IMG/VR virus record: IMGVR_UViG_2531839130_000010
DNA length: 27,627 bases
Direction: 5' to 3' (one strand)
Source of the DNA: a virus
Taxonomy: Duplodnaviria > Heunggongvirae > Uroviricota > Caudoviricetes
The notes beneath the pieces are model-generated. The model had not been told where the DNA came from. It was given only the letters and a program-made list of their open reading frames with translations, and made no database searches. Both the position numbers and the translations under genes were made by a program. Of the stretch, positions 9,371 through 27,627 are shown in pieces (position 1 is the stretch's first letter; each line of letters begins with the position of its first letter).

Positions 9371-9458
9371 GCATCAGGGACATAAAGCAGACTGAAACAG
9401 AGGGCATTTTTATCTGGCTGGCTTTCATAGCCACGTCTGAATAACCGCAAGCGCCCGT

Positions 9459-9514
9459 TGTGCCAGCCACCACACACTGAACACCGATAGTGTGCTTGTG
9501 TCAGCCACGACACA
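9459..9514 (+). promoter_or_regulatory. Two TGT-N12-ACA dyads (Ogr/Delta-type activator boxes) upstream of the sid-like gene; candidate late promoter
   Basis: TGTgccagccaccacACA at 9459-9476 and TGTgtcagccacgacACA at 9497-9514, sharing a cagccac core; the sid-like ATG is at 9549. Confidence 0.4.
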
Positions 9515-9548
9515 ATTGACGTAACGAACCAACCCGACAGGAGAAGTC

Positions 9549-10840: not shown

Positions 10841-10845
10841 TATTA

Positions 10846-11118: not shown

Positions 11119-11141
11119 TTAGAAAAAAACGCCCACGTAAT

Positions 11142-11165
11142 CCCGGTCGAGTACCGGGATTTTTA
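11142..11165 (+). terminator. Rho-independent terminator after the delta gene
   Basis: Hairpin cccggt-cgagt-accggg followed by aTTTTT. Confidence 0.6.
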
Positions 11166-11512
11166 ACACCTTTTCCCTGGCTGGCCTGAGAGCGTATGAG
11201 TGCATGTCTATGGCGCATGAAAATGCATGAGTCTTATGCACCCTTTTTGAGGCGAAAACCTTTGTGTGGTGGTATCTGAGACGATTTATGGCATGCATGA
11301 AAACCAGTCTGTTAAGCGAAGCGGGCAGGCGTGCGGGGCTGCCCGCGTAAGGGCGTTGAATGGTATAACTATGGCACGGTTACCGCATGTTTTGAGCTGT
11401 AATCGAAGTTATGAAAATTACTATATAAAGCGGTCGCTGTTGTGGAGATACGATTGCGGGAAGTGATGGAAAGAGCTATAAAAAGTACAGAGGATAGTTT
11501 AATGAGGGTATT

Positions 11513-12790
11513 ATGAACCGTCAGCCGTTTACTTCAGCAGCACTTAAACGAAACTTAAGTGAAAGTGAGAAGGCTTATTATTTTAAAAAAAATAATGTTG
11601 CTGAGTTAGAATCATTAATTAGTGATGCCGTTTTAATTGCTAATGAGAATTTTCGCTCTGGTGTGAGTGTAAAGAAACTAAATATTAAGGGACGCTGCGT
11701 TTACACTGCTTCATGTTTGAAGGAAAAAATAATACTTAGACATTGCAATGCAAATTTAAAATGCCTTGAATCGCTTCGTCCCAAACAACGAAATACAATA
11801 ATTAGTGAGCTTAAAATTTATTTGGAAGAAGGTACTCCATTCAAAATATATCGTTTGGATATAAAGTCTTTCTTTGAATCAATTGATTTACCGCAGCTTT
11901 TTCAGCTCTTACATAACGAAACACGACTGTCTAGACATACAAAAAATTTGCTAGAATGGTATCTTAAATCGTGTGAAAGGCTTCACTCTTCGAAAGGATT
12001 ACCTAGAGGGTTAGAAATTAGTCCTATGTTATCAGAATTGTACTTGGCACAATTTGATAATAGTATTCATAGGCATCCAGAAGTATTTTATTATTCAAGA
12101 TTTGTAGATGATATGGTAATCGTTTCAAGTGGTTGTGAATGTGAAGCGTCCTTTATGGAATTTATACAAGATGTATTACCAAAGGGATTGGCTTTAAATA
12201 AAAATAAATTAAAAATATCTCCATGCATACCAAAGAGAAGTAAGGGTTTAAATAAACAGGATAAATTGCTTCATGAATTTGACTTTCTAGGGTACTCGTT
12301 TTCTATAATAGACACACCTTTGAGCAAAGATGGTGAGATTAATAGCTGTTACAGAAAGGTTGTTGTTAATTTATCTAAATCTCGCCTGAAGAAAATTAAA
12401 ACAAGAATAGCTAGGTCTTTCTACTCTTATCATATTAATGGTGATTTTAAACTATTGCTAGACAGGATTTCTTTTTTGACTAGTAACAGGGATTTAAATC
12501 GCAAAATAAAATCGTTAAGTTCTTTAGAAAAAAGCAAGATAAGTACAGGTATTTATTACAGTAATGCGAAGTTAGATGTTGACTCCATATCCCTAAAAAA
12601 ATTAGATGACTTTTTGCTATATTGTGTGCAATCTAATACTGGGCGTTTGAATAGTGTTGCAAAAAAACCTTTTAATTTGAAGCAAAAAAAAGAACTGCTA
12701 AGAAATAGTTTTAGAAAAGGCTTTGTGGATAGAGTATATAGAAAGTATAACTTTAAGCGCTATACTGAGATTACAAAAATATGGTTATAA
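11513..12790 (+). CDS. Reverse transcriptase, 425 aa (UG3-like; first gene of a DRT type 3-like pair)
   Basis: RT motifs read directly: YRLDIKSFFESI (motif 1/2), GLPRGLEISPMLSELYL (motif 4), RFVDDMVIV (catalytic motif 5), FLGYSF (motif 7). Strongly AT-rich versus the P4 backbone; stop overlaps next gene start. Confidence 0.8.
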   Translation: MNRQPFTSAALKRNLSESEKAYYFKKNNVAELESLISDAVLIANENFRSGVSVKKLNIKGRCVYTASCLKEKIILRHCNANLKCLESLRPKQRNTIISELKIYLEEGTPFKIYRLDIKSFFESIDLPQLFQLLHNETRLSRHTKNLLEWYLKSCERLHSSKGLPRGLEISPMLSELYLAQFDNSIHRHPEVFYYSRFVDDMVIVSSGCECEASFMEFIQDVLPKGLALNKNKLKISPCIPKRSKGLNKQDKLLHEFDFLGYSFSIIDTPLSKDGEINSCYRKVVVNLSKSRLKKIKTRIARSFYSYHINGDFKLLLDRISFLTSNRDLNRKIKSLSSLEKSKISTGIYYSNAKLDVDSISLKKLDDFLLYCVQSNTGRLNSVAKKPFNLKQKKELLRNSFRKGFVDRVYRKYNFKRYTEITKIWL

Positions 12791-14799
12791 AGAAAAACAT
12801 TAAACTTGATAAGAAAGATTATCTCAGGGCTTTACTATGTGATACACTGCCCGGTGATTGTCCAATTATTTTTTCAAATGATGGCTTATATATAAACTTA
12901 ACAGAATATGATAGAGTTTGTAATGATTTGTTACATTTTACTCCGGTTTCTTCTTTCTTAAAAAAAATAGTTAACCCTAATTTAGACTCTTCTATTAGTG
13001 TCGCAGATCGCCACCGAGAAAAGAAGAAACAAAGCTCCCCATTTGGCTATTGTATAGTAAAAGATGCCTTTAGCCAAAGACATCTTTCTTTAATTCACCC
13101 AAGATCTCAAATTAATTATTCGGAATTTTATAAAACATACTCATCCGTTATCACATTAAATACTTTAAAAAGTAATTTTTCTATTCGCTACCCACGTAAG
13201 GTCGCTAACTCTTTCTTTTTATATGAAAATAATGCTTTGGAAAAATATAAAGGGGAAGATATCGAAACAACAAAGGATGAGTTAATGAGGAAATATTCAT
13301 CCTCTTATTTTAGTTATGGCGGTTTCAACAGGATATATAAACTATTTCAAAGTAAGATGTTTATTGAGCTTGAGAAAAGATTCTCGGTGATGTGGATGTT
13401 AGATGTATCACATTGTTTTGATAGCATATATACGCATTCGGTTTCTTGGGCATTAAAAAATAAATCATATATAAAAAAACATGTTAAACACAGCAATCAA
13501 TTTGGACAAGAATTAGATACACTGATGCAACGTAGCAATAATAATGAAACAAATGGAATACCTATTGGTTCAGAGTTTAGCAGGGTTTTTGCAGAATTAA
13601 TATTTCAGCGAATTGATTGCAATATTGAGTCATGCCTTCTTAGTGAACATGGATGGGTTAATAATAAAGATTATGTTATATTGAGATATGTAGATGATTT
13701 TATTGTTTTTTGTAATGGTGAGTCAAGTGCCGAAGTTATTACAAAAATAATTAATGTGAAGTTAAATGAATATAATCTACAATTAAATGTAAACAAGCTT
13801 AAGAAGTATTCTAGGCCATTTTGCACTAGCAAGACAAGTTTGATTGTCAAAGTTAATGAATTAATTCGCAATTTAGAAATTAAACTGTATGAAAAACGTG
13901 ATAGTGGCTTTACTTTAAATAAAATAAGAAGTAAGCATGATTTAAAGATATATGTAATTAATCATGTCAAGTCTATATGCATTGAAAATCAAGTGTCTTA
14001 TTCTGATGTTTCATCATATATAATATCATCTCTTTCCAAAAGATTAATATCAATAATTGATATATTACGAGTTCAAGAAAATGAAGATGATGTAGATGTA
14101 AAAAAAAGGATTAAGGACTTAATTTTCACAATAACCGATATTATGTTGTTCTTTTTCAGTGTTAACCCAACTGTTTCATCATCTTATAAATTATCAAAGA
14201 CAATGGTTGTTGTTAATAACTATTTGAATGAAATATCTAGTGACTATAGTAGTATTTTTATGACTACGTTAGTGAATGCTGCGGAAAACATTAATTTTGG
14301 TGAGAATGATAATGGGCTGTTTATTGATGATTTCATTTCAATTGAAAAGGTTAATTTAATCTTGGCTGCTACTTTTTTTGGAGATAATTATCTTATAAGT
14401 GACAGTTTTTTTCATGGAGTTATACATAAAAAGAAATTGGACTACTTTACTATAATCTCACTGCTATTCTATTTTAGAAACAGAAGATCATTCCGAAAAT
14501 TGAAGTGTATAATAGAGGGTGAAATAAAGGAAATATTAAGTTCTAATATGGATTTGCTGCAATCATCGGAAAAGGCACATTTATTTTTGGATGTCATGTC
14601 ATGTCCATTTGTCTCAATAGAGACAAGGCGTTTTTTATATAGAAAATATCTCAAGAGCTATGAGCCAAAGCTGAACAGAAGTCATCTGGAGATTGAGAAT
14701 GATTTGCAATCTCTGCTTCAAACATATTGGTTTGTCAAGTGGGATGAGTTAGATATTGTGAAAATGATTGAGAAAAAAGAATTGAAAGAAAGCTATTAA
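12781..14799 (+). CDS. Reverse transcriptase, 672 aa (UG8-like; second gene of a DRT type 3-like pair)
   Basis: RT motifs: MLDVSHCFDSI (motif 2), GIPIGSEFSRVFAELIF (motif 4), RYVDDFIVF (catalytic motif 5), LQLNVNKLKKY (motif 6); long N- and C-terminal extensions; 10-bp overlap with the upstream RT gene. Confidence 0.8.
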   Translation: MVIKKNIKLDKKDYLRALLCDTLPGDCPIIFSNDGLYINLTEYDRVCNDLLHFTPVSSFLKKIVNPNLDSSISVADRHREKKKQSSPFGYCIVKDAFSQRHLSLIHPRSQINYSEFYKTYSSVITLNTLKSNFSIRYPRKVANSFFLYENNALEKYKGEDIETTKDELMRKYSSSYFSYGGFNRIYKLFQSKMFIELEKRFSVMWMLDVSHCFDSIYTHSVSWALKNKSYIKKHVKHSNQFGQELDTLMQRSNNNETNGIPIGSEFSRVFAELIFQRIDCNIESCLLSEHGWVNNKDYVILRYVDDFIVFCNGESSAEVITKIINVKLNEYNLQLNVNKLKKYSRPFCTSKTSLIVKVNELIRNLEIKLYEKRDSGFTLNKIRSKHDLKIYVINHVKSICIENQVSYSDVSSYIISSLSKRLISIIDILRVQENEDDVDVKKRIKDLIFTITDIMLFFFSVNPTVSSSYKLSKTMVVVNNYLNEISSDYSSIFMTTLVNAAENINFGENDNGLFIDDFISIEKVNLILAATFFGDNYLISDSFFHGVIHKKKLDYFTIISLLFYFRNRRSFRKLKCIIEGEIKEILSSNMDLLQSSEKAHLFLDVMSCPFVSIETRRFLYRKYLKSYEPKLNRSHLEIENDLQSLLQTYWFVKWDELDIVKMIEKKELKESY

Positions 14800-14972
14800 T
14801 TTGATAAATATGAGTCGTGGTCAGTTTCAAAATACTTACGTCATCGTCGTCGGTGTATTTTATATCGATTATGAAGACGATTTCGCTGGAACTGAAATCG
14901 GCTTGAATGCTTAAACTTAAGCTAAAAAAACAGTTTGAGACCAAAGCCTAAATTATTAGGCTTTGGATTTTC
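14800..14972 (+). ncRNA. Candidate structured non-coding RNA downstream of the RT pair, ending in a terminator hairpin
   Basis: No credible ORF; local self-complementarity (atcgtcgtc ... gaagacgat); ends with hairpin ccaaagcct-aaattatt-aggctttgg plus ATTTT at 14941-14971. Purely a candidate. Confidence 0.2.
14941..14971 (+). terminator. Rho-independent terminator downstream of the RT operon
   Basis: Perfect 9-bp stem ccaaagcct/aggctttgg, 8-nt loop, followed by aTTTT. Confidence 0.55.
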
Positions 14973-15191
14973 AGGTTCAGTTGAGAGTAATTGCTGTCTG
15001 TTTATTGCTTAACCAATACAGTTAGTGGTGCTTACACACCTGATGTTGAGAAACTGACCACACCAATACAACCTTTTGTTTGTCTTCAACTGTGTAGACT
15101 ACTAAACACGAATCAGCAGTTAGGGGCATGTATGGGGGCATTGGTTTTAATTTTTTATAAAATATCAATTTTTTCATATTGTTAAGTTATT

Positions 15192-15218
15192 GTTCGACTC
15201 CTATTATCGGCACCATCA
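15192..15218 (+). repeat. attR core of the P4-like element: second copy of the 27-bp tRNA-Thr 3'-end repeat
   Basis: Exact copy of 2302-2328; no tRNA body upstream of it. Confidence 0.8.
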
Positions 15219-15821
15219 AGAAAATCAATAACTTAGCTTAACTTCTCTAAGAAATTGTATCTTCTGTTATCACTTACAAACGCCTATACGTTGTTATGGG
15301 CTTTGGTAGTGTAACACGTATGGGCGAGTAGTTCCCAGGCTCAACCTCGTAACAAGTTCCTTTGAAGCTGGAAGACGTGCCACCGTCTCTAAACCTTCTA
15401 CCAAAACTCTTAGCAAGATGTTCCACACCTGGCGCGGTGTCCAATGATGCTACACGTCGTGAGACGTTGCAGAGGATAAACAGGCTAAATGATGGGAAGA
15501 GTTTTAAGTGCAATAGTGGATTAAAGCCCACCTCTTCAAAACCTAACTTGATCGGGAAAGAATCAAGCTCTAGCACGGTTTCGTCCACCGGAGTACAACG
15601 GGTGCCTGATAAGAGAAGAACTGCTAAGACTTCATAGCTTTTGTGAAAAAGCCCTTTTTAGTGGATACGCCTACGGCGCTTATTTTTTGGTATAACCATC
15701 AAAGGCGCTTTATGGCTCCTATTGTCTTGAAAATGTATCTTTACTTGTATTGTGTTTTATGCGTAGCCTTCCTGTGTAGTATGTAACTTGTTCATTTTCA
15801 TATGAATACAGAGGCAACACG

Positions 15822-15974
15822 ATGAAAAACATTGCAGCTATCAAACGTAATAACCGCAAGATTCACGCTCGTAAGTTCCTGTCTACGCCAGAAGGAAAAG
15901 CCTGGCTAGAGCGTAAACAGCGAGAGAACGAAGAAAGAAAACTCCTTAGTGAGTTGAAATGGCTTAAGGATTGA
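15822..15974 (+). CDS. Small basic hypothetical protein (50 aa; below ORF-track cutoff)
   Basis: Manual translation MKNIAAIKRNNRKIHARKFLSTPEGKAWLERKQRENEERKLLSELKWLKD; GAGG-like RBS about 9 nt upstream. Confidence 0.3.
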   Translation: MKNIAAIKRNNRKIHARKFLSTPEGKAWLERKQRENEERKLLSELKWLKD

Positions 15975-16539
15975 ACCACCAGTAGGCGCATAACACATCC
16001 AGCGATCAAAGATGTGTTTATGCACCTGATAGTGAAATTATTAAAGTCGTTTAGTTAACATCGCCATTGCTTGAGCAATAATTGCAACAGCGTCCATCTC
16101 TTCACTGGAAGCGATGCAAATGCGGTAACTAATAGCCACAACGAATACATCAATAACGAGAAAGTGAATAGTGTGAAGATGTTTTGAAAGTAAATGCATA
16201 ACTTCCTCCGGTTTTACGATAGGAAGATTAGAACATGCATTAAATGATGTTACAAGGGTGGTAATTTACCCTAATAGTCTACTATTCACCTCAATCTACG
16301 TCAACCAATATTTGATGTAGATTTAATTTTCTTTTAAAAACAATATGTTGCAATTTGTTGAATTTTGGGGTTAGGTTGTTTTTTGAACGTTTTCATCAAG
16401 TGTAAAGATACGTTTAGCCTTCATAGTGAGTTCAGTTACTGTCTTTTTCTCTGAAATCGGCGCAGACGTGATCAATGTTTAACGCGAAGATCAGCGGCGT
16501 CAGGTCCACGCAGCGACAATTCTCAAATATCAGGAGGCA

Positions 16540-17097
16540 TTACGCTTCCTGCTCTTTCTTGATACGTTGCACCGTCTGTGTGCTGACACTGAAATCTTTT
16601 GCTACGCTCCGAATTGATCCACCATTCGCGAGAGCGGCAACAATTCCCGCTCGATCAATTGCTTTTCCATTACCACGTTTTGCTATACGTCCAGCGGCCT
16701 TAGCTGCGGCGATCCCCTCACGCTGCCGCTCAAGCATCATTTCACGTTCCATTTGTGCCACTGCTGCAAGCACTGTGAGCATCATATTCCCTGCGGGAGA
16801 GTTCTTCCCTGTCTTAAAGTCTTCTTTATGGAAATGCACAGACACGCCGCGCTCTGTTAATTGCTCAACCGTTGCCAGAAGGTCGGCTGTATTACGACAA
16901 AGGCGATCAATACTATGGACGTGTAACACGTCACCCTCCCGCACATAGTTCATCATTGCCTCAAACTGTGGGCGCTGAGTGTTCTTGCCTGACGCTTTAT
17001 CTTCAAAGACTTTATCAAGAGTTACTCCAGCTAATTGACGGTCTGTGTTTTGTTGCACAGTCGATACCCTAATGTATCCAATATTAGCCATTTTCAT
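16540..17097 (-). CDS. Serine recombinase (resolvase / DNA invertase family), 185 aa
   Basis: N-terminal catalytic signature IGYIRVSTVQQNTDRQ (active-site Ser), resolvase core, C-terminal HTH GGSIRSVAKDFSVSTQTVQRIKK; AAGGA RBS. Confidence 0.85.
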   Translation of the reverse strand: MKMANIGYIRVSTVQQNTDRQLAGVTLDKVFEDKASGKNTQRPQFEAMMNYVREGDVLHVHSIDRLCRNTADLLATVEQLTERGVSVHFHKEDFKTGKNSPAGNMMLTVLAAVAQMEREMMLERQREGIAAAKAAGRIAKRGNGKAIDRAGIVAALANGGSIRSVAKDFSVSTQTVQRIKKEQEA

Positions 17098-17655
17098 TTT
17101 CCTTCTGTGTTGATTTGTGTGTAGTGATTATTGATCGTGTTGATTAGGTGTGTAAAGGACTTTTTTCACTACGAAATTCGAAGGTTTTTAGTGTGGTGAT
17201 TTAGCCTGCTTTATCACTACACGTCTTGCATGAGAATCATGTAGTTACATTTTGGTAAAATTAGCAAGCTATTAAATAGTGTGTTTATTTTGAAAAAATA
17301 ATTTTTTGTTGCATTAAAGGAAACTTGTTCGACAAATAATAGATTGATTTTTAATCAACAATTTCTGATAGTGCTCTGTAAGCCGTATTACACAAGGCTT
17401 TGCGAAAGTGATGTAAAAGTGAAGAAAGCTAACATTGCACTTTTTAAGCTACTTTTCATTGGATTTTTACGTAGGAATTACACAGGGATTAATCATCAAT
17501 TACATTGAATTTAAGCCTGTTTTAGATGTTTAATTTTGGTAGCAAGAAACACTTTTAGAAGATCATTGCACAGATGCTATGTGATGATTGGATGTAACGG
17601 TAGGTCACTGTGAGCTACCCCTATCAAGTCTGATACCCGATAAGTATAAATAACA

Positions 17656-17756
17656 CCTGGGAAATGAGTTCCGATCTATTTAGGAAATAACCGTGGAAGT
17701 GGTTTCCTACCTACCTAGGAAATGAGTTCCTATCACCTAGGAAATGATTTCCGACA
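17656..17756. repeat. Cluster of near-palindromic direct repeats CCT(A/G)GGAAATGA(G/T)TTCC (3 copies) plus a related dyad; candidate protein-binding sites
   Basis: Copies at 17656-17674, 17714-17734, 17736-17756; dyad taggaaa-N15-tttccta at 17681-17709. Core GGAAAT-N-ATTTCC is palindromic. Confidence 0.5.
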
Positions 17757-18147
17757 ATACTATAATTAAACTACAATTAAACTATATAATATAATTCTTT
17801 TTTATCTTTATAAGAATAATTATAGGGATACCCGTTAGGGAGTCTAACGACTATCCCTTAATCTATTGGCATTCGCCAGAACCTTGCACAAGTTAGAGTG
17901 TTAGTCGTTAGACTGCTTGTCATAACACATAGTTTTTGTTTGTTGATGTTAGTTAGTAGATCTATGTTCGCTAATGCCGCTCACAACGAATATGTAATCT
18001 ACTATGTGCAAATAGCCTACGGCTTGCGTAAGGCTAAATAGTCTTGCGCTGTGCGCTTCAATAGTTCCATTGATGAGGCTTATGATCTTACCCAGCAATA
18101 GTGGACACGCGGCTAAGTGAGTAAACTCTCAGTCAGAGGTGACTCAC

Positions 18148-18447
18148 ATGACAAAAACAGTATCAACCAGTAAAAAACCCCGTAAACAGCATTCGCCTGA
18201 ATTTCGCAGTGAAGCCCTGAAGCTTGCTGAACGCATCGGTGTTACTGCCGCAGCCCGTGAACTCAGCCTGTATGAATCACAACTCTACAACTGGCGCAGT
18301 AAACAGCAAAATCAGCAGACGTCTTCTGAACGTGAACTGGAGATGTCTACCGAGATTGCACGTCTCAAACGCCAGCTGGCAGAACGGGATGAAGAGCTGG
18401 CTATCCTCCAAAAGGCCGCGACATACTTCGCGAAGCGCCTGAAATGA
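18148..18447 (+). CDS. insE: IS3 transposase OrfA (HTH DNA-binding subunit)
   Basis: [28 protein letters not shown]... recognised as IS3 OrfA; ATG at 18148 with GAGGTG RBS (track start 18139 is a GTG). Confidence 0.9.
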
Positions 18448-19310
18448 AGTATGTCTTTATTGAAAAACATCAGGCTGAGTTCAGCATCAAAGCAATGTGC
18501 CGCGTGCTCCGGGTGGCCCGCAGCGGCTGGTATACGTGGTGTCAGCGGCGGACAAGGATAAGCACGCGTCAGCAGTTCCGCCAACACTGCGACAGCGTTG
18601 TCCTCGCGGCTTTTACCCGGTCAAAACAGCGTTACGGTGCCCCACGCCTGACGGATGAACTGCGTGCTCAGGGTTACCCCTTTAACGTAAAAACCGTGGC
18701 GGCAAGCCTGCGCCGTCAGGGACTGAGGGCAAAGGCCTCCCGGAAGTTCAGCCCGGTCAGCTACCGCGCACACGGCCTGCCTGTGTCAGAAAATCTGTTG
18801 GAGCAGGATTTTTACGCCAGTGGCCCGAACCAGAAGTGGGCAGGAGACATCACGTACTTACGTACAGATGAAGGCTGGCTGTATCTGGCAGTGGTCATTG
18901 ACCTGTGGTCACGTGCCGTTATTGGCTGGTCAATGTCGCCACGCATGACGGCGCAACTGGCCTGCGATGCCCTGCAGATGGCGCTGTGGCGGCGTAAGAG
19001 GCCCCGGAACGTTATCGTTCACACGGACCGTGGAGGCCAGTACTGTTCAGCAGATTATCAGGCGCAACTGAAGCGGCATAATCTGCGTGGAAGTATGAGC
19101 GCAAAAGGTTGCTGCTACGATAATGCCTGCGTGGAAAGCTTCTTTCATTCGCTGAAAGTGGAATGTATCCATGGAGAACACTTTATCAGCCGGGAAATAA
19201 TGCGGGCAACGGTGTTTAATTATATCGAATGTGATTACAATCGGTGGCGGCGGCACAGTTGGTGTGGCGGCCTCAGTCCGGAACAATTTGAAAACAAGAA
19301 CCTCGCTTAG
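18444..19310 (+). CDS. insF: IS3 transposase OrfB (DDE catalytic subunit)
   Basis: 288-aa IS3 OrfB with integrase-core DDE region (WAGDITYL ... HTDRGGQY ... [11 protein letters not shown]); overlaps OrfA as in IS3. Confidence 0.9.
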
Positions 19311-19875
19311 GCCTGTGTCCATATTACGTGGGTAGGATCATTACGCCAATCTAACGATCATCAATCTATTTAAGAGAAAATCTATTGTGCAATACTCTGA
19401 CGAGTGCAATAACCTTGTGTGCTACGCGTTAGCGATGTTAGCACATAGACACAGACAACAACCAACAACAAACAAAAAAGAAAGAATGGTTTTAGTAGTT
19501 GAAGGTTAAATAAGTTTCTACCGCTTAAATCAAGCCGTAGGCGAGCTAAACGTATATAAGGCAGGGAAACCTTAGCGGTAATAGATTAGCTCATTATAGA
19601 GCTTCTGAGGAGCTTTACAGGTATTTTATAAGGTGTCTGAAATTAGAGTTTATCTATCATCTCCTTTTCATATACCTAACAAATACAAAATAAGCCCCTT
19701 AAATAAACCTCTGGCGAGCTAAACTGTCATTACATAAGGGAATGTATTGTTTTTATCAAAACCTCGTTAGAACGCGTTTTAGAGAATAAGGAAGAATAGC
19801 ATCACACAGAAGAGCACGAATTGCTAAGCAAAATCATAACATACTGAAAAATGATCAATATTTTATGGGCGGGGG

Positions 19876-19904
19876 TTGACAAAAGCCTTTAGTTATGGTA
19901 AAGT
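19876..19904 (+). promoter_or_regulatory. Candidate sigma70 promoter with extended -10 (TTGACA-N17-TAAAGT, TG at -15/-14)
   Basis: TTGACA 19876-19881, 17-bp spacer, TGgTAAAGT 19896-19904; about 120 bp upstream of the first small gene. Confidence 0.4.
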
Positions 19905-20027
19905 AATATTAGGGACAGGAAAACATTCCTATCCTCTAAATAATTAAACCAATGCACCGCACTTTGAAGCCCAAGAGGCTTGCAAGGTGTCTTTTTCTTC
20001 TAACCAAATAGAATAGGAGGTTAATTA

Positions 20028-20210
20028 GTGAAGTATTTCACTTCTCAAGATGTAGTTGAAGCCTGGAAACGTGGTGAGATCAACCGCTTTAGGGTAAGAA
20101 TGAATAGGAACACAGCGCGACGCTGTGGTTATCCAGAGCGTGAAAAATGTTTTGACGATGCACTAAAAATTATTGATGAACTGCGTAAGGCAGGAGCAGA
20201 GAAAGAATAA
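20028..20210 (+). CDS. Small hypothetical protein (60 aa)
   Basis: ORF track; GTG start preceded by a strong AGGAGG RBS. Confidence 0.45.
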   Translation: MKYFTSQDVVEAWKRGEINRFRVRMNRNTARRCGYPEREKCFDDALKIIDELRKAGAEKE

Positions 20211-20233
20211 TAACAGGAGAAGGAGAAAACCAA

Positions 20234-20422
20234 ATGAATATTAATTTTGATTCTGCAACTTATAACGCGTTGTTAAATCGTGCAAAGGCAGAAGGGAAAT
20301 CAATTCCAAAACTTGTTAATGAATTACTAATTACAGTCCTTACAAAGGAGGAACTAAATGATCAAAAATATCAAAACAATTGCCGAAGCGAAAGCCAAAT
20401 GTCTAAATCAGAAAGATGGTAA
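20234..20422 (+). CDS. Small hypothetical protein (62 aa), possible RHH/CopG-like fold
   Basis: ORF track; GGAGAAGGAG RBS; 3' end overlaps next gene by about 65 nt, so true extent is uncertain. Confidence 0.35.
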   Translation: MNINFDSATYNALLNRAKAEGKSIPKLVNELLITVLTKEELNDQKYQNNCRSESQMSKSERW

Positions 20423-21026
20423 ACAAAAATATGTAGTCGTTGAGCAGTGGTTGAAGATGTTTAAAAAGTGGTTCTCACCGTCAGGTAATGAATACACCGC
20501 TACACTGCCAGCCGTTGAAATCTATAGCTATATAGCTGGATTCAATGAACAAGGGCAAGAATGTTACGCCACTCAAAAAACATTATCTAATATTGGAATG
20601 GTTAGTGATCGCCAGGTTCGCAATATTATAAATATGTTTGTTGATATGGGAGTTCTTTCTGTAGAGGCTCGGGACGGGCAAACATCACTCTATAAAGCAT
20701 TACCATTCACAGATGCACATATTACTCCCCCTGGAGAGTCATCACTACCTGATCCTTCTGAGAAAGAAGACGAATCTAATGAAATATTGAATGTTTCCGA
20801 AATCATCGTTGAAGAAGAAACACAAGAGCCAGAGTTCCCTGAGCGGCCCGAAATTTTTACTTGGCTTCTTTCCCTTGATAAGAAGAAACCACCGCACGAA
20901 GAAACAGAAGATTTTGTAAAACGAGCATTAGATTCAAAGAATATCTATCTTTGTGAAAATGATTTTGACTCTTTGATAATTGATCTCAAAAGTGAGAGCA
21001 CAATATATGATTCACTACCCTTCTAA
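20358..21026 (+). CDS. Hypothetical protein (222 aa) with winged-HTH-like N-terminal region and acidic C-terminus
   Basis: AAGGAGG RBS; segment ATQKTLSNIGMVSDRQVRNIINMFVDMGVLSVEARDGQTSLY resembles a wHTH; acidic EEETQEPEFPERPE stretch. Confidence 0.5.
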   Translation: MIKNIKTIAEAKAKCLNQKDGKQKYVVVEQWLKMFKKWFSPSGNEYTATLPAVEIYSYIAGFNEQGQECYATQKTLSNIGMVSDRQVRNIINMFVDMGVLSVEARDGQTSLYKALPFTDAHITPPGESSLPDPSEKEDESNEILNVSEIIVEEETQEPEFPERPEIFTWLLSLDKKKPPHEETEDFVKRALDSKNIYLCENDFDSLIIDLKSESTIYDSLPF

Positions 21027-21035
21027 GGAGAATAA

Positions 21036-21305
21036 ATGACTTATAACATCACTATAGGAAACAAAACTATTGAAATAACTGAAAGCGGATACAACATTTT
21101 AAAAGCTATTTTGGACATAGAGTTTTCACCACCGACAGTGGTTAGCTTTTGTAGTTTAGGCGGCTACAGCGCACAACACGTAAATCATTGGTTAAATCAT
21201 TTTACATCGTTCGGTGTGCTGGATTATGAAGGGATTAACAGCACTACATTTCGTCTTTTGAAATTAAACAAAGATTTTGAATTGTTTCTCACAAACAATC
21301 AATAA
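21036..21305 (+). CDS. Hypothetical protein (89 aa)
   Basis: ORF track; AAGGAG RBS. Confidence 0.45.
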   Translation: MTYNITIGNKTIEITESGYNILKAILDIEFSPPTVVSFCSLGGYSAQHVNHWLNHFTSFGVLDYEGINSTTFRLLKLNKDFELFLTNNQ

Positions 21306-21402
21306 CAACAGATCGGGCAATACATATGGCAAATGCATTTATGGCGATATTCATCGTAACAATGGCGTCCAGTTTTTATAATCCACATAAAAAGAGGGAA
21401 AA

Positions 21403-21786
21403 ATGGGAAGAAAGAAAAAGAACAACTTAAAACGTATTGAAAAAAACAGTAATTTCAATTCAAAAAGACAACGTCCACCGACACACACCAATAACGAAAT
21501 TCCAGGGGAAGAGATAATCTTTATTCTTGAAACAGAATCCCCTGAATTAAGTGATGAAGAATTAGAAATAATCCAATCAATGCCAGGCGTTTACTTTCGC
21601 CCAAGAACAAGAAAACAAACTATCATTTCTGATGGCACTCTGAAACGTTGGCAGCTTTTAGGGTTTAGCTCCTATCATCATTTTTTGGGATTTAACGCTT
21701 TCAATAATTGTGTAGGTGGTGCATCGGAAGTCGATCTGATGGCTCATTTAGAAGATACATTAGCTTCTAACAAACGTTCTAACTAA
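21403..21786 (+). CDS. Hypothetical protein (127 aa)
   Basis: ORF track; GAGGG RBS; basic N-terminus. Confidence 0.45.
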   Translation: MGRKKKNNLKRIEKNSNFNSKRQRPPTHTNNEIPGEEIIFILETESPELSDEELEIIQSMPGVYFRPRTRKQTIISDGTLKRWQLLGFSSYHHFLGFNAFNNCVGGASEVDLMAHLEDTLASNKRSN

Positions 21787-21801
21787 TAAAATGATGGGTG
21801 T

Positions 21802-22047
21802 ATGTATAAGCGCCCAATGAAAATATTCAAAAAAGGAAAAATAATGATTGGCTATATTCAAGAAACACAATTATTTCAGATGATCCTGTCTGATGCAAAA
21901 AACTATGCAGAGTTAATTCGGCTGGCAAAAGAAACAGAAGACTACGAAGCATTAGAGCGTTACCGTGATGAAGTGCTGACGCTCAAGACACCTTTTAACA
22001 TCGTATTGAATATGATTAATGATGCATTACAAGGAGAATACGCATAA
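21802..22047 (+). CDS. Hypothetical protein (81 aa or shorter)
   Basis: ORF track; alternative internal starts possible; stop overlaps next ATG. Confidence 0.4.
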   Translation: MYKRPMKIFKKGKIMIGYIQETQLFQMILSDAKNYAELIRLAKETEDYEALERYRDEVLTLKTPFNIVLNMINDALQGEYA

Positions 22048-22346
22048 TGGAAGAAGATATTAGCAATGCAATGGAACAACTTTTAGATCTGACTATCTCA
22101 CTACAAACAAGAATAAATCAAGCCTATTCAGATTTATGCGATTACACGCTCTCTCAATGCGTTATTAGCTTAATGAAGGTGAATGTAAGCCTTGACGATT
22201 TTATCTCTCTGGTGAGCGTATCAGAGGACGATGCAAAACAGTGTAATCAAATCATCACAGACATCGCCACCACGTTAAAGGTTGCAAGTGAAGAGATTCA
22301 GCAATTAGTAGATGATTTAGCAAAAAGTGCTATTTTCTCTAAATGA
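22047..22346 (+). CDS. Hypothetical protein (99 aa)
   Basis: ORF track; AAGGAGAA RBS; ATAATG overlap with the upstream gene. Confidence 0.45.
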   Translation: MEEDISNAMEQLLDLTISLQTRINQAYSDLCDYTLSQCVISLMKVNVSLDDFISLVSVSEDDAKQCNQIITDIATTLKVASEEIQQLVDDLAKSAIFSK

Positions 22347-22618
22347 TAATGAAAATTATTTGCATTTATAATGATTTTGTTATATAATAATTTTAGGGGT
22401 AGATAAAAAGATTTTAGTTGGTGTTAATCCTTCTACTGTCATAAATCCCTGCATATGGAAGGTGATAGCCTCAAAGGTTGAGTGGCATTAACCTCTAACA
22501 AATATTACCTTCCATCTCTCAAGAAGTTTTAGAATAATCATAACTCCCTCTTTGATTGTTGATTGTTTCTACGTTGTGTTGATGAATGTTGTTAGGCATT
22601 GTGCTTAATTTTGATAAA

Positions 22619-22661
22619 AGCGGGTAGGTGTTATCTCCTTGCCCTTCCCGCTCTTATTTTT
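22619..22661 (+). terminator. Terminator-like hairpin with T-tract
   Basis: agcggg ... cccgct stem (large 22-nt loop) followed by cttattttt; weaker than the other terminators. Confidence 0.3.
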
Positions 22662-23288
22662 CATCTATGCTTATCCTAAAGCTCCTTATTTTGTCAGAAA
22701 ACATTAAAGAGCCTTACACTGATAGTTATATTTTATAACTATTTACTAACATCATTAAACTATTATTTAATGACAGAAGTTAGTAACAGAATAATCTATT
22801 AAGTTGTTGTCAAAAACAATCATCTGCATAGCGTTAGCCGCAAGCAGAGAGAGTTTAGCTAAGAATGGTGCAATAAACTTTGGAAATATTGATAGCAAAA
22901 CGGGTTTTATAGAATGCGGATCTATAAGCTTTGGTTGTAAAAACGATTTTCTGAAACGGTAGATTACTGTTGGTGTAGTTAATCATTATTAAAAATTTAA
23001 TCTGTGAGTAGATTGGAATAGTGATTCCTTAAAATCTGACTGGTGCATCCACACCATGAAAGATAGCGGTTGGCCACCGCGCCCCGAATAGATATTCCTG
23101 ATTGATTCCGCATGTTTTCCTAAGAGCATGTTTTCAGGAGTATCTATTCACCCTTTAAGCATATCATCAAGTATATTTAAAAAGTGTATTTGCTGATATG
23201 TTTAATCCTCTTATAGTTTAACTTATCAATTATGTAATTGCCCGCACGTTAAAGCCCCTTTGCTGGTCAGAATTAACCTCTTACGGCA

Positions 23289-23528
23289 TTGGGGCTTTTT
23301 ATTTGTCTGGCACTAACAGGAACATTATTTATGAAACAAGAAATGATTATCAGCAAAGACGGGGAAACGATGATTGTTAGTGATGAAAACCTCATTAAGG
23401 TTGCCGCACTGTTGGGAGTTACTCCCGAAAGTCTTCGTTCTACCACTGCTCAATTATTTAAATCGGCTGATGCGGTTAGTCTTGCTGATGCCCTTAAATC
23501 TAAAATTAAACAACTGAAAGGAAAATAA
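23289..23528 (+). CDS. Hypothetical phage protein (79 aa; may start at internal Met near 23331)
   Basis: ORF track; first of a co-oriented phage-like gene set. Confidence 0.4.
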   Translation: MGLFICLALTGTLFMKQEMIISKDGETMIVSDENLIKVAALLGVTPESLRSTTAQLFKSADAVSLADALKSKIKQLKGK

Positions 23529-23532
23529 TCTT

Positions 23533-23916
23533 ATGGCTAACCCATATGGAAAATTAAAAGCAGTGAATGCGGATAACTCCCGTTCACGCTGTAAGGTAGT
23601 AGCTTACGCTGCTGATCCAGTGCTGCAAGATCGCCTCGTCAAACTGGCTTCACCTCTCACTGACGATCTTATTGTCGGGGCTTTGCTGAAAGCCGATGGC
23701 ACCAAAGCAACAACCGCATCTGATATTGCTCACGTAGTAGTTGAACCGGCTTATGAAGGACAGGAAAGCGTAGTGGTTGCACATCCTACTTTCGTTATTC
23801 TGGCTGAAGATGGGATTGAATTTAACAGCATGGAAAAGGCAAGTGTTATTGCAAAACTGCAATCTCTCGGCTTTGTAATTGCTGGTTATGAAGAACTTGC
23901 GATCCCTACGACTTAA
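23533..23916 (+). CDS. Phage structural-module protein (127 aa), function unknown
   Basis: ORF track; AAGGA RBS; tight spacing with neighbours. Confidence 0.45.
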   Translation: MANPYGKLKAVNADNSRSRCKVVAYAADPVLQDRLVKLASPLTDDLIVGALLKADGTKATTASDIAHVVVEPAYEGQESVVVAHPTFVILAEDGIEFNSMEKASVIAKLQSLGFVIAGYEELAIPTT

Positions 23917-23930
23917 CAAGGAAAATAATA

Positions 23931-24962
23931 ATGAATGATTTATCAACATATTTTGGCGTTAATACTGCGGTAGTAACTCCATTTGCTTATGAGAATGCAC
24001 TTAATACCCTGATTACTAATCTCGATCTGTTCGATGTGCAATATCATACAGAAAACAGCATTCTTCTTACCGACCTGATTGATCAGTTTGTGCAGGTAGC
24101 TGGGGAAACCTCGCCTTACGCTCAAAGCGACTGGAACGCCTCTAAACGTCAGGAATGGTCAAACAAACTTTTCCAGATGAAACACGTCGGCAGTATTAAC
24201 GCTGTTACTTCTCGTGACCTGGAACAATACAGCCGCCAATATCCAAACCGTTCTGATGCTATGCTGGTAGCGGTTAATGATTTCTCTGAGGCTCATTACC
24301 GTTCACACGCAAACCGTGTTGAAGTGGATCTGATTACCGCGCTGCTGGGCCTGAAAGTTGAATCTGAATATGCCGGACAAGGTGATCTCGACTTCCTCGA
24401 CGGTCAGGCTAAAACCACGGTACCCGCTATCGACTTTGCATCGACTACTGTTAACCCGTTCCTTGCTATTCGTAAAGCGGTGCGCTTACAGAGTGAAAAG
24501 CTGGGGTCTGGTCTTGCTGCAAAGCGAACTGGTGTAATTATCTTTGCTGCTGGCACTGCTGCTGATGGTTTGTCATCTAACCCGCTGATCAGTGACATGG
24601 TGAAATATGCAGGCGATGCGAGTGCTACGGCCCTGTTTACCCGTATGGTTGATTCTAACCCAGCCTATGACTCTTTCCAGATTGGTGGGATCACTGTTAT
24701 TGATGTGTCAATGTTTCCTGAGATTGTTGCTCACATCGGAGAGAACGGTTTCGCAATTGTTCCGGTAATGGATAAAGCGGCACAGTGTTACCAGCTTCAT
24801 AGCGGCGTTGGTGTGCGTCATGCTGAGTTAGGTCAAGATGCCGTGTTGCATCACCAATATCTAATCAAGGATGAATTCCAATTCCCATCTGTGGTTACTG
24901 AGACATCTTATCTGCCAGTAAACAACATTCCGCAAGCTATCATCTTCGGATCTGCTGCGTAA
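23931..24962 (+). CDS. Phage structural protein (343 aa); major capsid or major tail protein candidate
   Basis: ORF track; size and position before the tape-measure-like gene; no diagnostic motif, call by context only. Confidence 0.45.
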   Translation: MNDLSTYFGVNTAVVTPFAYENALNTLITNLDLFDVQYHTENSILLTDLIDQFVQVAGETSPYAQSDWNASKRQEWSNKLFQMKHVGSINAVTSRDLEQYSRQYPNRSDAMLVAVNDFSEAHYRSHANRVEVDLITALLGLKVESEYAGQGDLDFLDGQAKTTVPAIDFASTTVNPFLAIRKAVRLQSEKLGSGLAAKRTGVIIFAAGTAADGLSSNPLISDMVKYAGDASATALFTRMVDSNPAYDSFQIGGITVIDVSMFPEIVAHIGENGFAIVPVMDKAAQCYQLHSGVGVRHAELGQDAVLHHQYLIKDEFQFPSVVTETSYLPVNNIPQAIIFGSAA

Positions 24963-25113
24963 TAAAGCGTTAATAGACGATTCCCCATCGGGGCAATAAG
25001 GGTAAAGGGATTAACTAACCTGTAGGCGCAAATACAGTAACGAATCTCTTTGCCCTTTTTGTTTTTCTACTGTCTACAAACCCAAATAAAAATATATATG
25101 TGAGAGAAAACCA

Positions 25114-25311
25114 ATGAATACAGAAAACCCACAATCCTTTATTCTTAAGGCTGTAAAAGAACTGGCAGCTATTAGCGAGGAATCAGTTATAAACACATCG
25201 GCGCTTTGCCGCCTTTTAGAAATTGATGCAAATAATGTGCGCCAGCGTGTCTTTCAGACTGGGTGCAGCACTTTCGAAGCAATTCAATACTATTGCTCTA
25301 AAAAACAATAA
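25114..25311 (+). CDS. Small hypothetical protein (65 aa), possible tail assembly chaperone by position
   Basis: ORF track; weak RBS. Confidence 0.3.
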   Translation: MNTENPQSFILKAVKELAAISEESVINTSALCRLLEIDANNVRQRVFQTGCSTFEAIQYYCSKKQ

Positions 25312-25345
25312 TAAACAACAATCATAATACAGGGAAACAATTAGC

Positions 25346-26764
25346 ATGTTAGAACTTAACGTCAGCCGCTTATCAAACGTTGTCACCTTCCAGGTTGATC
25401 GACCATCATTAGAGAAAGCAAAAGCAGAAGTAGAAAAACTTCGTAAACAAATGGCGGCGGTGAAAGATATAGAATTGCGTGTTAAGACACATAAACAATC
25501 AACTTCTAAAGCAAAAAAAGACGTAGACGATATTGCTAAAAAGCAAGCACAGGCAGATAAAGCCAATGCTAAAGCACAATTAGCCGCTCAACGTGTAGTT
25601 GCAAGAGAACAAAAAGCCCTGGCAGCACGCAAAGAGAAGGCAGACTTAAAACTGTTAGACGTTGGATCAAGCATTAGTGCATTGCACCGCCTTTCTGTAG
25701 CGGAACAATATAAAGCTATTGCACAGGCTAGAGAAATTGCCCTCCAATATGAAAGAGGAGCTATTAGTCTGGCACGTATGAATAGCCAAATGAAACGCCT
25801 ACAACAGCAACAACGTAAGATTAATGGCAATCGTAACGCTCACGCTAAAGCCTATGCACCTGTTAAGGGTAGCGGGAGTATTGGCGGCGGTGCTGCGGCT
25901 GTTATGCTGGGTGGCTTAGGCGCTGGCGCTACGTATATGGCTATGAGCAAAGCCTCTGAATTTGTTACTAACAGCTTTGCGAATGCTGAAACGCTGGGTG
26001 AATTGTATAGCCGTGCGAAGCTGGGCGGTGTAGACGTTAACCAGATGAACAATATTGAGCAATGGGCCTACAAAAACGGCGTTGATTCAATGATGGGGGA
26101 TCAAGGTAAACGTAAGTATCTCGATCAGATGAAAGATGTGCGTGAGCGTGCAACCAAAAGCTATGATGAGGCTGAATATGTAGTCGATAAAAAAACAGGC
26201 AAAGGTGAATGGAAGGGCGGCGATAGCGGCATCAATACTTTAATGAATGAAGGATTCTTAACTAAAAAGGATCTAAAAGACTTTGCTGATAATCCGGCTG
26301 GTCTGGTTAGTAAAGCAGTTCAGGGAATGGTGAAGAAAGGCTATTCAGATGCACAAATCGGTAGTCGTCTGGAAGATCTGGCTGATGATTTGATGCTCAC
26401 CTCTAAATACTGGACACGCTCCGCTAAAGAAGTGGAACAATCAGCACGAGAACAACGAGAATCAGGGCGCTGGGTAACACAGGCACAACAGGAAAGCGTT
26501 ATTAAATTCCGTGAACTGAATAATGCACTTAGTGGGCTTTCTGACTCACAAGGGATCGCCTTTGTTGATGGCTTTATGAAATCTCTTGATCCGAAAGTGA
26601 TTGAAGAGTTTAAAAAGAGCATGGTTGCAATGCTGCCAATGTTTACCAAATTAGGCGAGGCTATCGGCGGATTGGTTAACGCCGTAATGAAAACAATCAA
26701 CTGGCTGATGAAAAACGACGAGAAGACGGATGATCCTACCCACGTAATATGGACACAGGCCTAA
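25346..26764 (+). pseudogene. Tape-measure-like phage protein gene, truncated by IS3 insertion at 26730/26731
   Basis: Lys/Ala-rich coiled-coil N-terminus followed by Gly-rich hydrophobic segment GSGSIGGGAAAVMLGGLGAGATYMAMS; last 11 codons and the stop are IS3 terminal-repeat sequence. Confidence 0.5.
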
Positions 26765-27627
26765 GCGAGGTTCTTGTTTTCAAATTGTTCCGGACTGAGG
26801 CCGCCACACCAACTGTGCCGCCGCCACCGATTGTAATCACATTCGATATAATTAAACACCGTTGCCCGCATTATTTCCCGGCTGATAAAGTGTTCTCCAT
26901 GGATACATTCCACTTTCAGCGAATGAAAGAAGCTTTCCACGCAGGCATTATCGTAGCAGCAACCTTTTGCGCTCATACTTCCACGCAGATTATGCCGCTT
27001 CAGTTGCGCCTGATAATCTGCTGAACAGTACTGGCCTCCACGGTCCGTGTGAACGATAACGTTCCGGGGCCTCTTACGCCGCCACAGCGCCATCTGCAGG
27101 GCATCGCAGGCCAGTTGCGCCGTCATGCGTGGCGACATTGACCAGCCAATAACGGCACGTGACCACAGGTCAATGACCACTGCCAGATACAGCCAGCCTT
27201 CATCTGTACGTAAGTACGTGATGTCTCCTGCCCACTTCTGGTTCGGGCCACTGGCGTAAAAATCCTGCTCCAACAGATTTTCTGACACAGGCAGGCCGTG
27301 TGCGCGGTAGCTGACCGGGCTGAACTTCCGGGAGGCCTTTGCCCTCAGTCCCTGACGGCGCAGGCTTGCCGCCACGGTTTTTACGTTAAAGGGGTAACCC
27401 TGAGCACGCAGTTCATCCGTCAGGCGTGGGGCACCGTAACGCTGTTTTGACCGGGTAAAAGCCGCGAGGACAACGCTGTCGCAGTGTTGGCGGAACTGCT
27501 GACGCGTGCTTATCCTTGTCCGCCGCTGACACCACGTATACCAGCCGCTGCGGGCCACCCGGAGCACGCGGCACATTGCTTTGATGCTGAACTCAGCCTG
27601 ATGTTTTTCAATAAAGACATACTTCAT
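26731..27627 (-). mobile_element. Second IS3 copy, inverted relative to the first, truncated by the window end
   Basis: Starts with the IS3 terminal repeat TGATCCTACCCACGTAATATGGACACAGG; OrfB is 288/288 aa identical to the copy at 18444-19310. Confidence 0.9.
26761..27627 (-). CDS. insF: IS3 transposase OrfB (second copy)
   Basis: Identical 288-aa translation to the first copy; start codon is the last 3 bases of the window. Confidence 0.9.

Follow-up and report, generated by a model that had tools for sequence, protein, structure and literature searches.

The open reading frame (ORF) encoding 472 amino acids (aa) that is present at 25346-26764 (plus strand) in the ORF listing of the viral record IMGVR_UViG_2531839130_000010, a stretch of 27,627 nucleotides called here the window, is, judging from its homologies, a pseudogene in which the 5′ 75% of a phage tail tape-measure gene has been fused to 34 nt of the insertion sequence (IS) IS3. 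The explanation that best accounts for it, and that we regard as very probable, is that the tape-measure gene was truncated by IS3 and a deletion of about 15.5 kb, and that its parent was a compact element of about 13 kb, most likely a satellite of myophages resembling phi92. The in-frame read-through into the terminal repeat of IS3, which adds 11 residues, is incidental and nothing unusual.

The truncated gene and its junction with IS3

The uninterrupted allele is found in Escherichia coli ET791 (locus L001), where the gene has 1842 nt and its 613-aa product (WP_000891726.1) is annotated as 'hypothetical'. The alignment of this locus with the window breaks off at window position 26730, which corresponds to L001 position 16390, and the native stretch comprises 1385 nt, i.e., 461 codons plus 2 nt. 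Because residues 1-461 are 99-100% identical to hundreds of 613-aa database proteins, the ORF is not a chance frame. The original prediction, according to which the ORF crosses the IS3 boundary at 26730/26731 and ends at a stop codon inside the IS, with the native C-terminal part missing from the window, proved exact to the base: the ORF stops 34 nt into the inverted IS3, and 152 residues of the 613-aa ET791 allele are absent. It had also assigned the last 11 residues to IS3, which holds for ten of them, but the first is specified by a hybrid codon 462 that is two-thirds native (GA from the gene, T from IS3) and in which Asp replaces the native Glu. A repeat search of the window gave a single inverted pair, 18444-19341 versus 26730-27627, with arms of 898 nt that are 100% complementary. 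The outermost base pair of these arms is a chance match; the true end of IS3 (TGATCC...) starts at 26731, where the second copy opens with TGATCCTACCC. The TAA of the chimeric ORF (26762-26764, plus strand) overlaps the TAG of IS3 orfB (26761-26763, minus strand), within the terminal repeat of the IS.

By homology, the truncated gene is a phage tail tape-measure gene of the phi92 gp134 type, as the original prediction had proposed in more general terms. A large-database search with the intact protein gave 442 relatives, and the best 120 of these 442 are at least 86% identical to it and nearly all 610-620 aa long. The protein matches PHROG 16051 ('tail length tape measure protein') with an E value of 3.4e-34, and its sole significant sequence match in the PDB is chain V of entry 21vq, phi92 gp134 (659 aa; E 1.5e-22), with which residues 1-41 and 84-456 are aligned. 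In the 2026 cryo-electron microscopy (cryo-EM) paper on phi92, gp134 is the trimeric tape measure protein, and its residues 631-656 are resolved inside the baseplate (PMC13450770). Additionally, in a BLASTP comparison with the 651-aa orthologue of Phapecoctavirus phiWec188, residues 1-611 align with residues 1-648 (26% identity, E 3e-43). These identifications came from PHROGs, PDB sequences and pairwise comparison; Pfam and NCBIfam yielded no significant family for the products of the tape-measure and capsid genes or of the small ORFs of the element.

The distribution of conservation along the protein points in the same direction. In an alignment of eight sequences, the last ~55 residues are the best-conserved part of the family (NPxFN...VPLTIQSDTSRLSDYIDFxAKAS...SLTL..SGQS), and this block, which the 613-aa allele has and the window ORF, with 461 as its last native residue, lacks, corresponds to the baseplate-docking part of gp134. 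At the other end, the N-terminal ~170 residues are charged, with a high content of Lys, Ala, Glu and Gln, and they are followed at about residues 173-200 by a hydrophobic segment of mainly Gly and Ala. Such a charged N-terminal region, together with a Gly/Ala-rich hydrophobic segment, is typical of tape measure proteins. Furthermore, a homologue of the tube initiator gp135 is encoded directly 3′ of the gene in intact E. coli copies. Tube, sheath and chaperone genes are absent from all copies examined.

A different identity, that of a TolA-like or cell-envelope protein of about 470 aa with another native C-terminus, could be argued from some of these observations. For instance, the Lys/Ala/Glu/Gln-rich composition of the 170 N-terminal residues and the lack of Pfam and NCBIfam matches would suit it, and one homologue is labelled 'putative cell envelope integrity protein' in a phage record. 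However, the closest relatives listed (those with at least 86% identity) are nearly all 610-620 aa long, the homology to gp134, a protein placed in the tail lumen and the baseplate by cryo-EM, runs from end to end, and the intact gene lies directly 5′ of the gp135 homologue. A cell-envelope identity is refuted by the homology to gp134 and its phiWec188 counterpart and by the length of the relatives, and we give it next to no credence: the relatives are phage tail proteins, and the native length is 613 aa, not about 470.

If the tape measure works as gp134 does, the intact 613-aa protein would form a trimer that fills the lumen of the tail tube and sets the length of the tail. Its conserved C-terminus would dock in the baseplate hub beneath the tube-initiator ring; the gene directly downstream in intact copies encodes a homologue of the protein of that ring. 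Without the hub-docking end, the product of the chimeric ORF would not be able to act as a tape measure. It is nevertheless conceivable that the 472-aa chimera is functional in some other way, e.g., as a dominant-negative poison of phi92-like tail assembly that is maintained as a defence, given that the ORF is open up to the IS3 stop, that the start codon and the upstream region are kept, and that interference with tail assembly is a known defence strategy (PMC11364771; PLE11 Rta). We consider this very unlikely, as the conserved hub-docking block is absent and the allele, which arose with a 15.5 kb deletion that also destroyed host operons and looks like collateral damage, is rare. In fact, the tape-measure/IS3 junction occurs in one of 5,426 complete E. 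coli genomes (GPEC60-12-649), and a look-up of the exact sequence found the 472-aa product on two National Center for Biotechnology Information (NCBI) draft assemblies.

One further record ends near the junction that defines the pseudogene. The provirus contig IMGVR_UViG_2534681742_000008 (L020), whose tape-measure allele diverges from that of the window by about 3% in DNA, ends at its position 11383, 2 nt short of the same IS3 insertion point (codon 461). This end could reflect a separate insertion at that site, the event seen in the window combined with upstream recombination, or a break in the assembly.

The IS3 copies and the deletion

The two IS3 copies of the window differ in their flanks. 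Copy 1, of canonical length and with both orfA and orfB, is a simple insertion into an ORF-free region of the element: a target duplication of 3 bp (TTA) is found on its two sides, at 18080-18082 and 19341-19343, and the ET791 locus aligns to window positions 15192-18082 and 19341-26730 with an overlap of 3 bp (L001 9001-9003 are matched on both sides). Copy 2, which is inverted, is 100% identical to copy 1 over 897 nt and complete (1258 bp) in AQER01000004.1 (L054) and in GPEC60-12-649 (NZ_CM160084.1, L002); the RefSeq name for the insertion sequence is 'IS3-like element IS3 family transposase'. In contrast to copy 1, its flanks (GGA and TTC) show no target duplication, and copy 2 therefore borders a deletion; such flanks fit IS-mediated deletion or IS-IS recombination.

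The far side of copy 2 can be read in AQER01000004.1, which is 100% identical to window 15346-27627, both IS3 copies included. Beyond its complete 1258-bp IS3, this record continues with TTCCGGAAAACAGCAG..., in which nucleotides 1-43 of ecpB stand as their reverse complement, and the order after the IS is ecpB′ (from codon 14), ecpA, ecpR and ykgL. Similarly, ecpA and ecpR follow the IS3 of GPEC60-12-649. In ET791, the order is tape measure, tube initiator, integrase, yagP′, paoDCBA, yagU, ykgJ and ecpEDCBA-R, with which the window and AQER01000004.1 are collinear. Relative to ET791, the deletion amounts to 15,461 bp (record positions 3,755,641-3,771,101) and comprises tape-measure codons 462-613, the tube-initiator gene, the integrase gene and the right attachment site (attR), as well as the host genes yagP′, paoDCBA, yagU, ykgJ, ecpEDC and most of ecpB. 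The original prediction had suggested that the continuation of the gene might be sought beyond the second IS3; ecpB codon 14, ecpA and ecpR are there instead, and the 3′ end of the gene is deleted. Consequently, the element copy in the window has lost the ability to excise.

Because order and orientation are collinear with ET791, the event was a deletion rather than an inversion, and an inversion between the two inverted IS3 copies is excluded by the same match in gene order and orientation. The deletion would be associated with IS3, either as an adjacent deletion by intramolecular transposition or as the outcome of recombination between two direct IS3 copies. The left IS3 junction was found in none of the complete E. 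coli genomes searched, and no genome was found that has IS3 at just one of the two ends of the deletion.

At positions 14042-14811 of GPEC60-12-649, an IS1 and a transporter gene fragment replace window 17328-22193, and elsewhere this genome is 100% identical to the window. The comparison identifies this as a second, IS1-associated deletion, which took IS3 copy 1 and the replication region of the element.

The 7.39-kb segment between two 100% identical inverted IS3 copies has the outward form of a composite transposon, in which case 19341-26730 would be cargo, the truncation would have occurred elsewhere and the neighbours would not be native. This is extremely improbable. The left IS3 carries its own 3-bp TTA duplication and hence is a simple insertion, the interior of the segment and the flanks of the left IS3 are collinear with, and more than 99.8% identical to, the IS-free ET791 locus, and GPEC60-12-649 keeps the right-hand junction without the left-IS3 stretch, which the IS1-associated deletion removed there. 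A composite-transposon origin is thus ruled out by the target duplication of copy 1 and by the collinearity with IS-free genomes.

The parent element and its genes

As comparison among its relatives indicates, the parent is a discrete integrative element of about 13 kb and not what decay has left of a full prophage. The ET791 locus has a 13-bp core of the thrW 3′ end, ACTCCTATTATCG, at L001 6118 and 19073; the two copies bound about 12.95 kb, in which the only ORFs of at least 200 aa are those of Rep (222), the capsid protein (343), the tape measure (613), the tube initiator (225) and the integrase (425). At least 80% of a 7.5-kb segment of the element is present in 98 of 5,426 complete E. coli genomes, O104:H4 strains among them, and the number of complete genomes with an intact copy is about 100. 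The O104:H4 strains FDAARGOS_349, 401 and 403 carry an intact thrW-type element, which covers 99% of the 7.5-kb query at 99.8% identity.

A second E. coli type adjoins the ETT2 island and lies between 22-bp repeats of a tRNA 3′ end, which we take to be that of glyU. Its integrase is 33% identical to that of the thrW type and the gene order is the same; the identities are 86% for the tape measure, 79% for the tube initiator, 56% for the capsid protein and 100% for the resolvase. Additionally, IMG/VR proviruses with the thrW integrase (98-99% identical) have tape-measure alleles down to 59% identity and very divergent capsid alleles, of which only the length and the position are kept. Among these capsid alleles, one has a closer match to the capsid protein of the phage (25% identity, E 8e-14).

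The variants from Klebsiella, Enterobacter, Kluyvera, Citrobacter, Kosakonia and Buttiauxella have a layout in common. It starts with a small recombinase gene (minus strand), followed by a stretch free of ORFs, a gene for Rep or a helicase, and small ORFs. Next come genes for a protein of 125 aa, the capsid protein (345 aa), a protein of ~63 aa and the tape measure (~618 aa), and the layout closes with an integrase gene (minus strand). The tape measures of these non-E. coli variants are 30-33% identical to the phage one, with E values down to 1e-103. The reduced gene set is found in eight or more enterobacterial genera, whose proteins diverge by 50-60%. The size of the element is 12.4-13.8 kb throughout, and attachment-site (att) repeats bound 12.7-13.6 kb. 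The traits of a mobile unit are present: besides the integrase there is another recombinase, and the element also has a protein of the Rep or helicase type and iteron-like repeats.

Some of the non-E. coli variants also encode 65-77-aa proteins that resemble phi92 gp086, which is small and has a signal peptide (L041 1498-1695 and L042 2296-2529, both on the minus strand; 38-43% identity, E 1e-10 and 3e-8). These proteins may represent a further tie of the element family to phi92-like phages.

One variant lacks an integrase. It was found as contigs of 13.2-13.8 kb in independent runs, in the Logan contigs L005 (SRR31140684), L034 (ERR11027388) and L036 (ERR5014346) and in L037 (GCA_949767545.1), and three of the four contigs checked have a terminal overlap of 30 nt (k-1). 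This overlap alone was not taken as proof of circularity, as att-flanked contigs give the same signature; the contigs are considered circular because their break points differ between samples. In this variant, a superinfection-immunity gene of the T4 Imm type and a lipoprotein-like gene replace the integrase, att and the resolvase, and there is a gene for a 492-aa DEAD/ResIII-like helicase with a C-terminal helix-turn-helix (HTH). The circular variant is found neither among the plasmids of PLSDB nor among the phages of INPHARED.

The virion genes of the element are few. The original prediction had pointed to co-oriented structural genes upstream of the tape-measure gene, and the capsid gene is indeed there. 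That the 343-aa protein is a capsid protein is supported by homology and by structural modelling. Homologues with 42-49% identity from Citrobacter, Klebsiella, Cronobacter and Enterobacter bear the name major capsid protein and contain PF03864, and the best Foldseek matches of the AlphaFold model (pLDDT 58.5) in the PDB are all HK97-fold capsids, with PhiTE first (E 1.5e-9) and then ICP1, Bas63, Sf14 and Chi. The match to the phiWec188 capsid protein is near-full-length (BLASTP E 7e-5), and the best PDB sequence match is phi92 gp124 (E 0.014). The 225-aa protein encoded downstream of the tape measure in intact copies is 49% identical to the product of the phiWec188 gene that adjoins its tape-measure gene, and it matches the phi92 tube initiator gp135 (E 7.4e-54); the copy of the glyU and circular variants has a Pfam Dit_like match. 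By contrast, tblastn searches with the neck, sheath, tube, chaperone and hub proteins of phiWec188 gave no match in any element locus, although all these queries matched L049, a contig of a real phi92-like phage from a metagenome-assembled genome that served as the control. Portal, terminase, sheath and tube genes were found in no element copy examined.

Could this gene set be what is left of an ordinary full-size prophage after random decay, with the IS3 cut as one further step? Phage-type capsid, tape-measure and tube-initiator homologues beside a tyrosine integrase at a tRNA site would be expected in that case; additionally, the element has ORF-free stretches of 1-1.7 kb, and the locus is the position of the cryptic prophage CP4-6 in K-12, although the CP4-6 genes found there (yagK-yagN, intF) belong to a different element. 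Nevertheless, we consider decay unlikely. The same reduced set, in the same order, is found at thrW and at glyU with integrases that are 33% identical, and it recurs in the eight or more genera mentioned above despite their protein divergence; integrase-less circular contigs exist; and the size is constant at 12.4-13.8 kb. Furthermore, sheath, tube, neck, portal and terminase genes are missing from every copy examined, a result on which independent decay would not converge. Random loss would leave relatives that differ in the genes they retain, whereas gene set and order are constant. Random decay is thus unlikely because one architecture recurs across att sites, integrases and genera. The original prediction had called the region a degraded prophage remnant, which is right in that this copy of the element is degraded, but the parent was a compact unit of about 13 kb and not a full prophage.

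The features of the window that bear on the element and on its neighbour are collected in Table 1.

Table 1. Positions of the tape-measure pseudogene, the other genes of the element, the IS3 copies and the adjacent P4-like satellite in the window
Feature	Position	Strand	Remarks
Native tape-measure part	25346-26730	+	codons 1-461 plus 2 nt of codon 462, of 613; identical to L001:15006-16390
IS3-encoded ORF tail	26731-26764	+	third base of codon 462, ten codons and TAA stop; within IS3 terminal inverted repeat
IS3 copy 1	18083-19340	+	1258 bp; orfA 18139-18447 (102 aa), orfB 18444-19310 (288 aa)
IS3 copy 2	26731-27627	-	inverted; 897 of 1258 nt in window; orfB 26761-27627
thrW 3′-end copy	15192-15218	+	right att of P4-like satellite and left boundary of tape-measure element
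Serine recombinase (resolvase) gene	16540-17097	-	left end of element
Four iteron-like repeats (ACCTAGGAAATGAGTTCC...)	17655-17768		spacing 22-35 nt; between resolvase gene and first small ORF of element
222-aa HTH protein, candidate replication initiator	20358-21026	+	Pfam, PHROG
127-aa protein	23533-23916	+	directly upstream of capsid gene; ORF of 120-128 aa at same position in all variants
Major capsid protein gene, 343 aa, HK97 fold	23931-24962	+	homologues, Foldseek, BLASTP
65-aa ORF	25114-25311	+	between capsid and tape-measure genes; 62-67-aa ORF there in all variants examined
P4-like satellite, integrase	2421-3680		
P4-like satellite, TOPRIM/DUF927 primase	6476-9148		
P4-like satellite, Icd-like gene, two psu-like genes, Ogr/Delta gene			

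Among the remaining genes of the element, the one for the 222-aa protein weakly resembles those of replication initiators: the protein has a Pfam HTH_36 match just below the family cut-off (5.5e-5) and matches PHROG replication-initiator families (3.6e-6 to 2e-3), and its place is taken in other variants by a 265-308-aa protein or by the 492-aa helicase-like protein. The iteron-like repeats, a possible origin or operator, sit in the 1.7-kb ORF-free region of the element, with IS3 copy 1 about 315 nt downstream. The resolvase is 100% conserved in the glyU variant, whereas the variants from Klebsiella and Enterobacter have a tyrosine recombinase of 186 aa in its place. The 127-aa protein occupies the place of the phi92 cement protein gp123, but the position alone is conserved, and identification with gp123 was dropped: BLASTP gave E 0.044 on 11 residues, gp123 was the top PDB match but with E 0.98, the hhalign probability was 0.65%, and the AlphaFold model was unusable (pLDDT 41.7). 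No credible ORF was found in window 22347-23330, a stretch of about 1 kb in the element; the glyU type has a 119-aa minus-strand ORF in the corresponding position (L008 7290-7649), of which no remnant was detected in the window. Rfam gave nothing in 15000-27627, and promoter and terminator scans gave background level only.

Immediately upstream of the element, a P4-like satellite extends over 2302-15218, between 27-nt copies of the thrW 3′ end at 2302-2328 and 15192-15218; in ET791, its site is empty. At the cargo position of this satellite, 11513-14799 (about 30% GC), are the genes of the antiviral reverse transcriptases Drt3a and Drt3b. Further upstream, window 1-2300, which precedes the first thrW repeat, has a low GC content (31-35%) and two minus-strand ORFs (215-1105 and 1115-2218), and it is presumably another island of the thrW tandem array.

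Comparison with known systems and significance

The closest known counterparts of the tape measure are phi92 gp134 (Justusliebigvirus, Stephanstirmvirinae) and its Phapecoctavirus orthologues, with which it shares end-to-end homology, a charged helical N-terminus, a hydrophobic segment and a conserved C-terminus. In phages of this type, as in intact copies of the element, a gp135-type tube initiator is encoded directly downstream. However, the identity is only 26-33%, the protein of the element has 613 aa instead of 651-659, its gene is located in a 13-kb integrated element without tube, sheath and chaperone genes and not in a virulent phage genome of 148 kb, and the copy in the window is without the last 152 residues.

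A direct precedent for the proposed mechanism is offered by the PLEs of Vibrio cholerae. These encode a tape measure, a chaperone and a baseplate hub protein that are 20-41% identical to those of the virulent myophage ICP1, and it has been shown experimentally that they assemble chimeric tails about 10 nm shorter than those of the helper (PMC11838301). Like a PLE, the element is small, integrative and tied to a large virulent myophage type, it has its own tape-measure gene and a baseplate-core gene, and its proteins have low identity to their phage counterparts (20-41% in PLEs, 26-53% in the element). In both, the satellite tape measure is the shorter one (582 versus 677 aa in PLEs, 613 versus 651-659 aa in the element). 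There are also differences: the two have no sequence relationship and live in different host families, PLEs use the ICP1 capsid protein with an external scaffold whereas the element has its own capsid gene, and no homologue of a tail-assembly chaperone was identified in the element.

Some described satellites share features with the element. For instance, major capsid and tape measure genes have been reported in the EPIP satellites of Mycolicibacterium (bioRxiv 10.64898/2025.12.02.691453), but EPIPs additionally carry genes for a small terminase, a scaffold, a head-to-tail adaptor and stopper and a serine integrase, and they have an actinobacterial host and a temperate siphophage helper. The cf-PICIs and P4-like satellites of enterobacteria are of similar size (about 11-15 kb) and, like the element, integrate at tRNA sites by means of a tyrosine integrase, and cf-PICIs have their own HK97-fold capsid protein. 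However, a tape measure is absent from cf-PICIs, which have genes for a portal, a protease, connectors and a small terminase; the element has no ORF of the size of a portal or terminase gene, and Pfam and PHROG scans of its proteins found none of the genes of the cf-PICI capsid module. The hallmarks of P4 (psu, delta/ogr, the alpha primase and the P4-type integrase) belong to the neighbour at 2302-15218 and not to the element. The repertoire of the element, i.e., capsid and tape measure with or without a tube initiator but without portal, terminase and connector genes, therefore matches no described satellite family, be it P4-like, PICI, cf-PICI, PLE, PICMI or EPIP. No description of the element family was found in the searchable literature, protein accessions included, although this absence does not prove novelty. 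The tape-measure family, by contrast, is already known, and an IS-truncated phage gene is ordinary.

The element is thus a discrete mobile unit of conserved small size with an incomplete set of virion genes, as would be expected of a satellite. By analogy with the PLEs, we infer satellite status, a phi92-like helper and a chimeric tail: the element would build small capsids from its own capsid protein and would place its own tape measure, together with the tube initiator in E. coli, into tails made by the helper, as PLEs do with ICP1. Because the tape measure of the element is 38-46 residues shorter than those of phi92-like phages, such tails are predicted to be roughly 6-7 nm shorter than those of the helper, at about 1.5-1.6 Å per residue. 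More broadly, it is possible, and proposed here tentatively as somewhat short of an even chance, that an undescribed satellite family of about 12-14 kb, spread across the Enterobacteriaceae, parasitises phi92-like (Stephanstirmvirinae-type) virulent myophages with its own capsid protein, tape measure and, in E. coli, tube initiator. Its members would be integrated at thrW, glyU and other sites, or be episomal.

Several observations weigh against this interpretation. The best identities to phage proteins are 26-33% for the tape measure, 49-53% for the tube initiator and 21-25% for the capsid protein, and no specific helper emerged. No small terminase was found in the PHROG scan, nor were a pac or cos site or any similarity to the phi92 terminal repeat. 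When six variants were compared by blastn with phi92 1-50,000 (which includes the 343-bp terminal repeat) and with the structural region of phiWec188, the matches were confined to the tape-measure gene or its 3′ end, and hence no pac or terminal sequence is shared. Additionally, the tube-initiator gene is absent from most non-E. coli variants, and the circular contigs might represent episomes of a plasmid-like kind instead of the genomes of satellites. With regard to the truncation, no precursor of either right-hand junction is found in the 5,426 complete E. coli genomes, and the mechanism of the deletion fits both of the routes described above.

The truncation is in itself a modest finding: it represents routine genome decay, which also cost the strain its pao genes and the greater part of the ecp pilus operon, and it matters for annotation, as the ORF should be marked as a pseudogene. 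The context of the element is a worthwhile lead. Its wider value resides in the compact and widely distributed parent, in which a capsid gene is combined with a tape-measure gene and the only further virion gene is an occasional tube initiator. Satellite-encoded tape measures were first demonstrated in 2025, in the PLEs of Vibrio. If the proposal made here is true, these elements would be the first satellites known to exploit phi92-like phages, a group used in E. coli phage therapy and biocontrol collections, and they would constitute a second, independent case of chimeric-tail assembly. They would also offer a tractable E. coli system in which to ask why satellites replace the tape measure, and would extend tail manipulation of the PLE type to enteric bacteria, where it would be combined with the formation of the satellite's own capsid.

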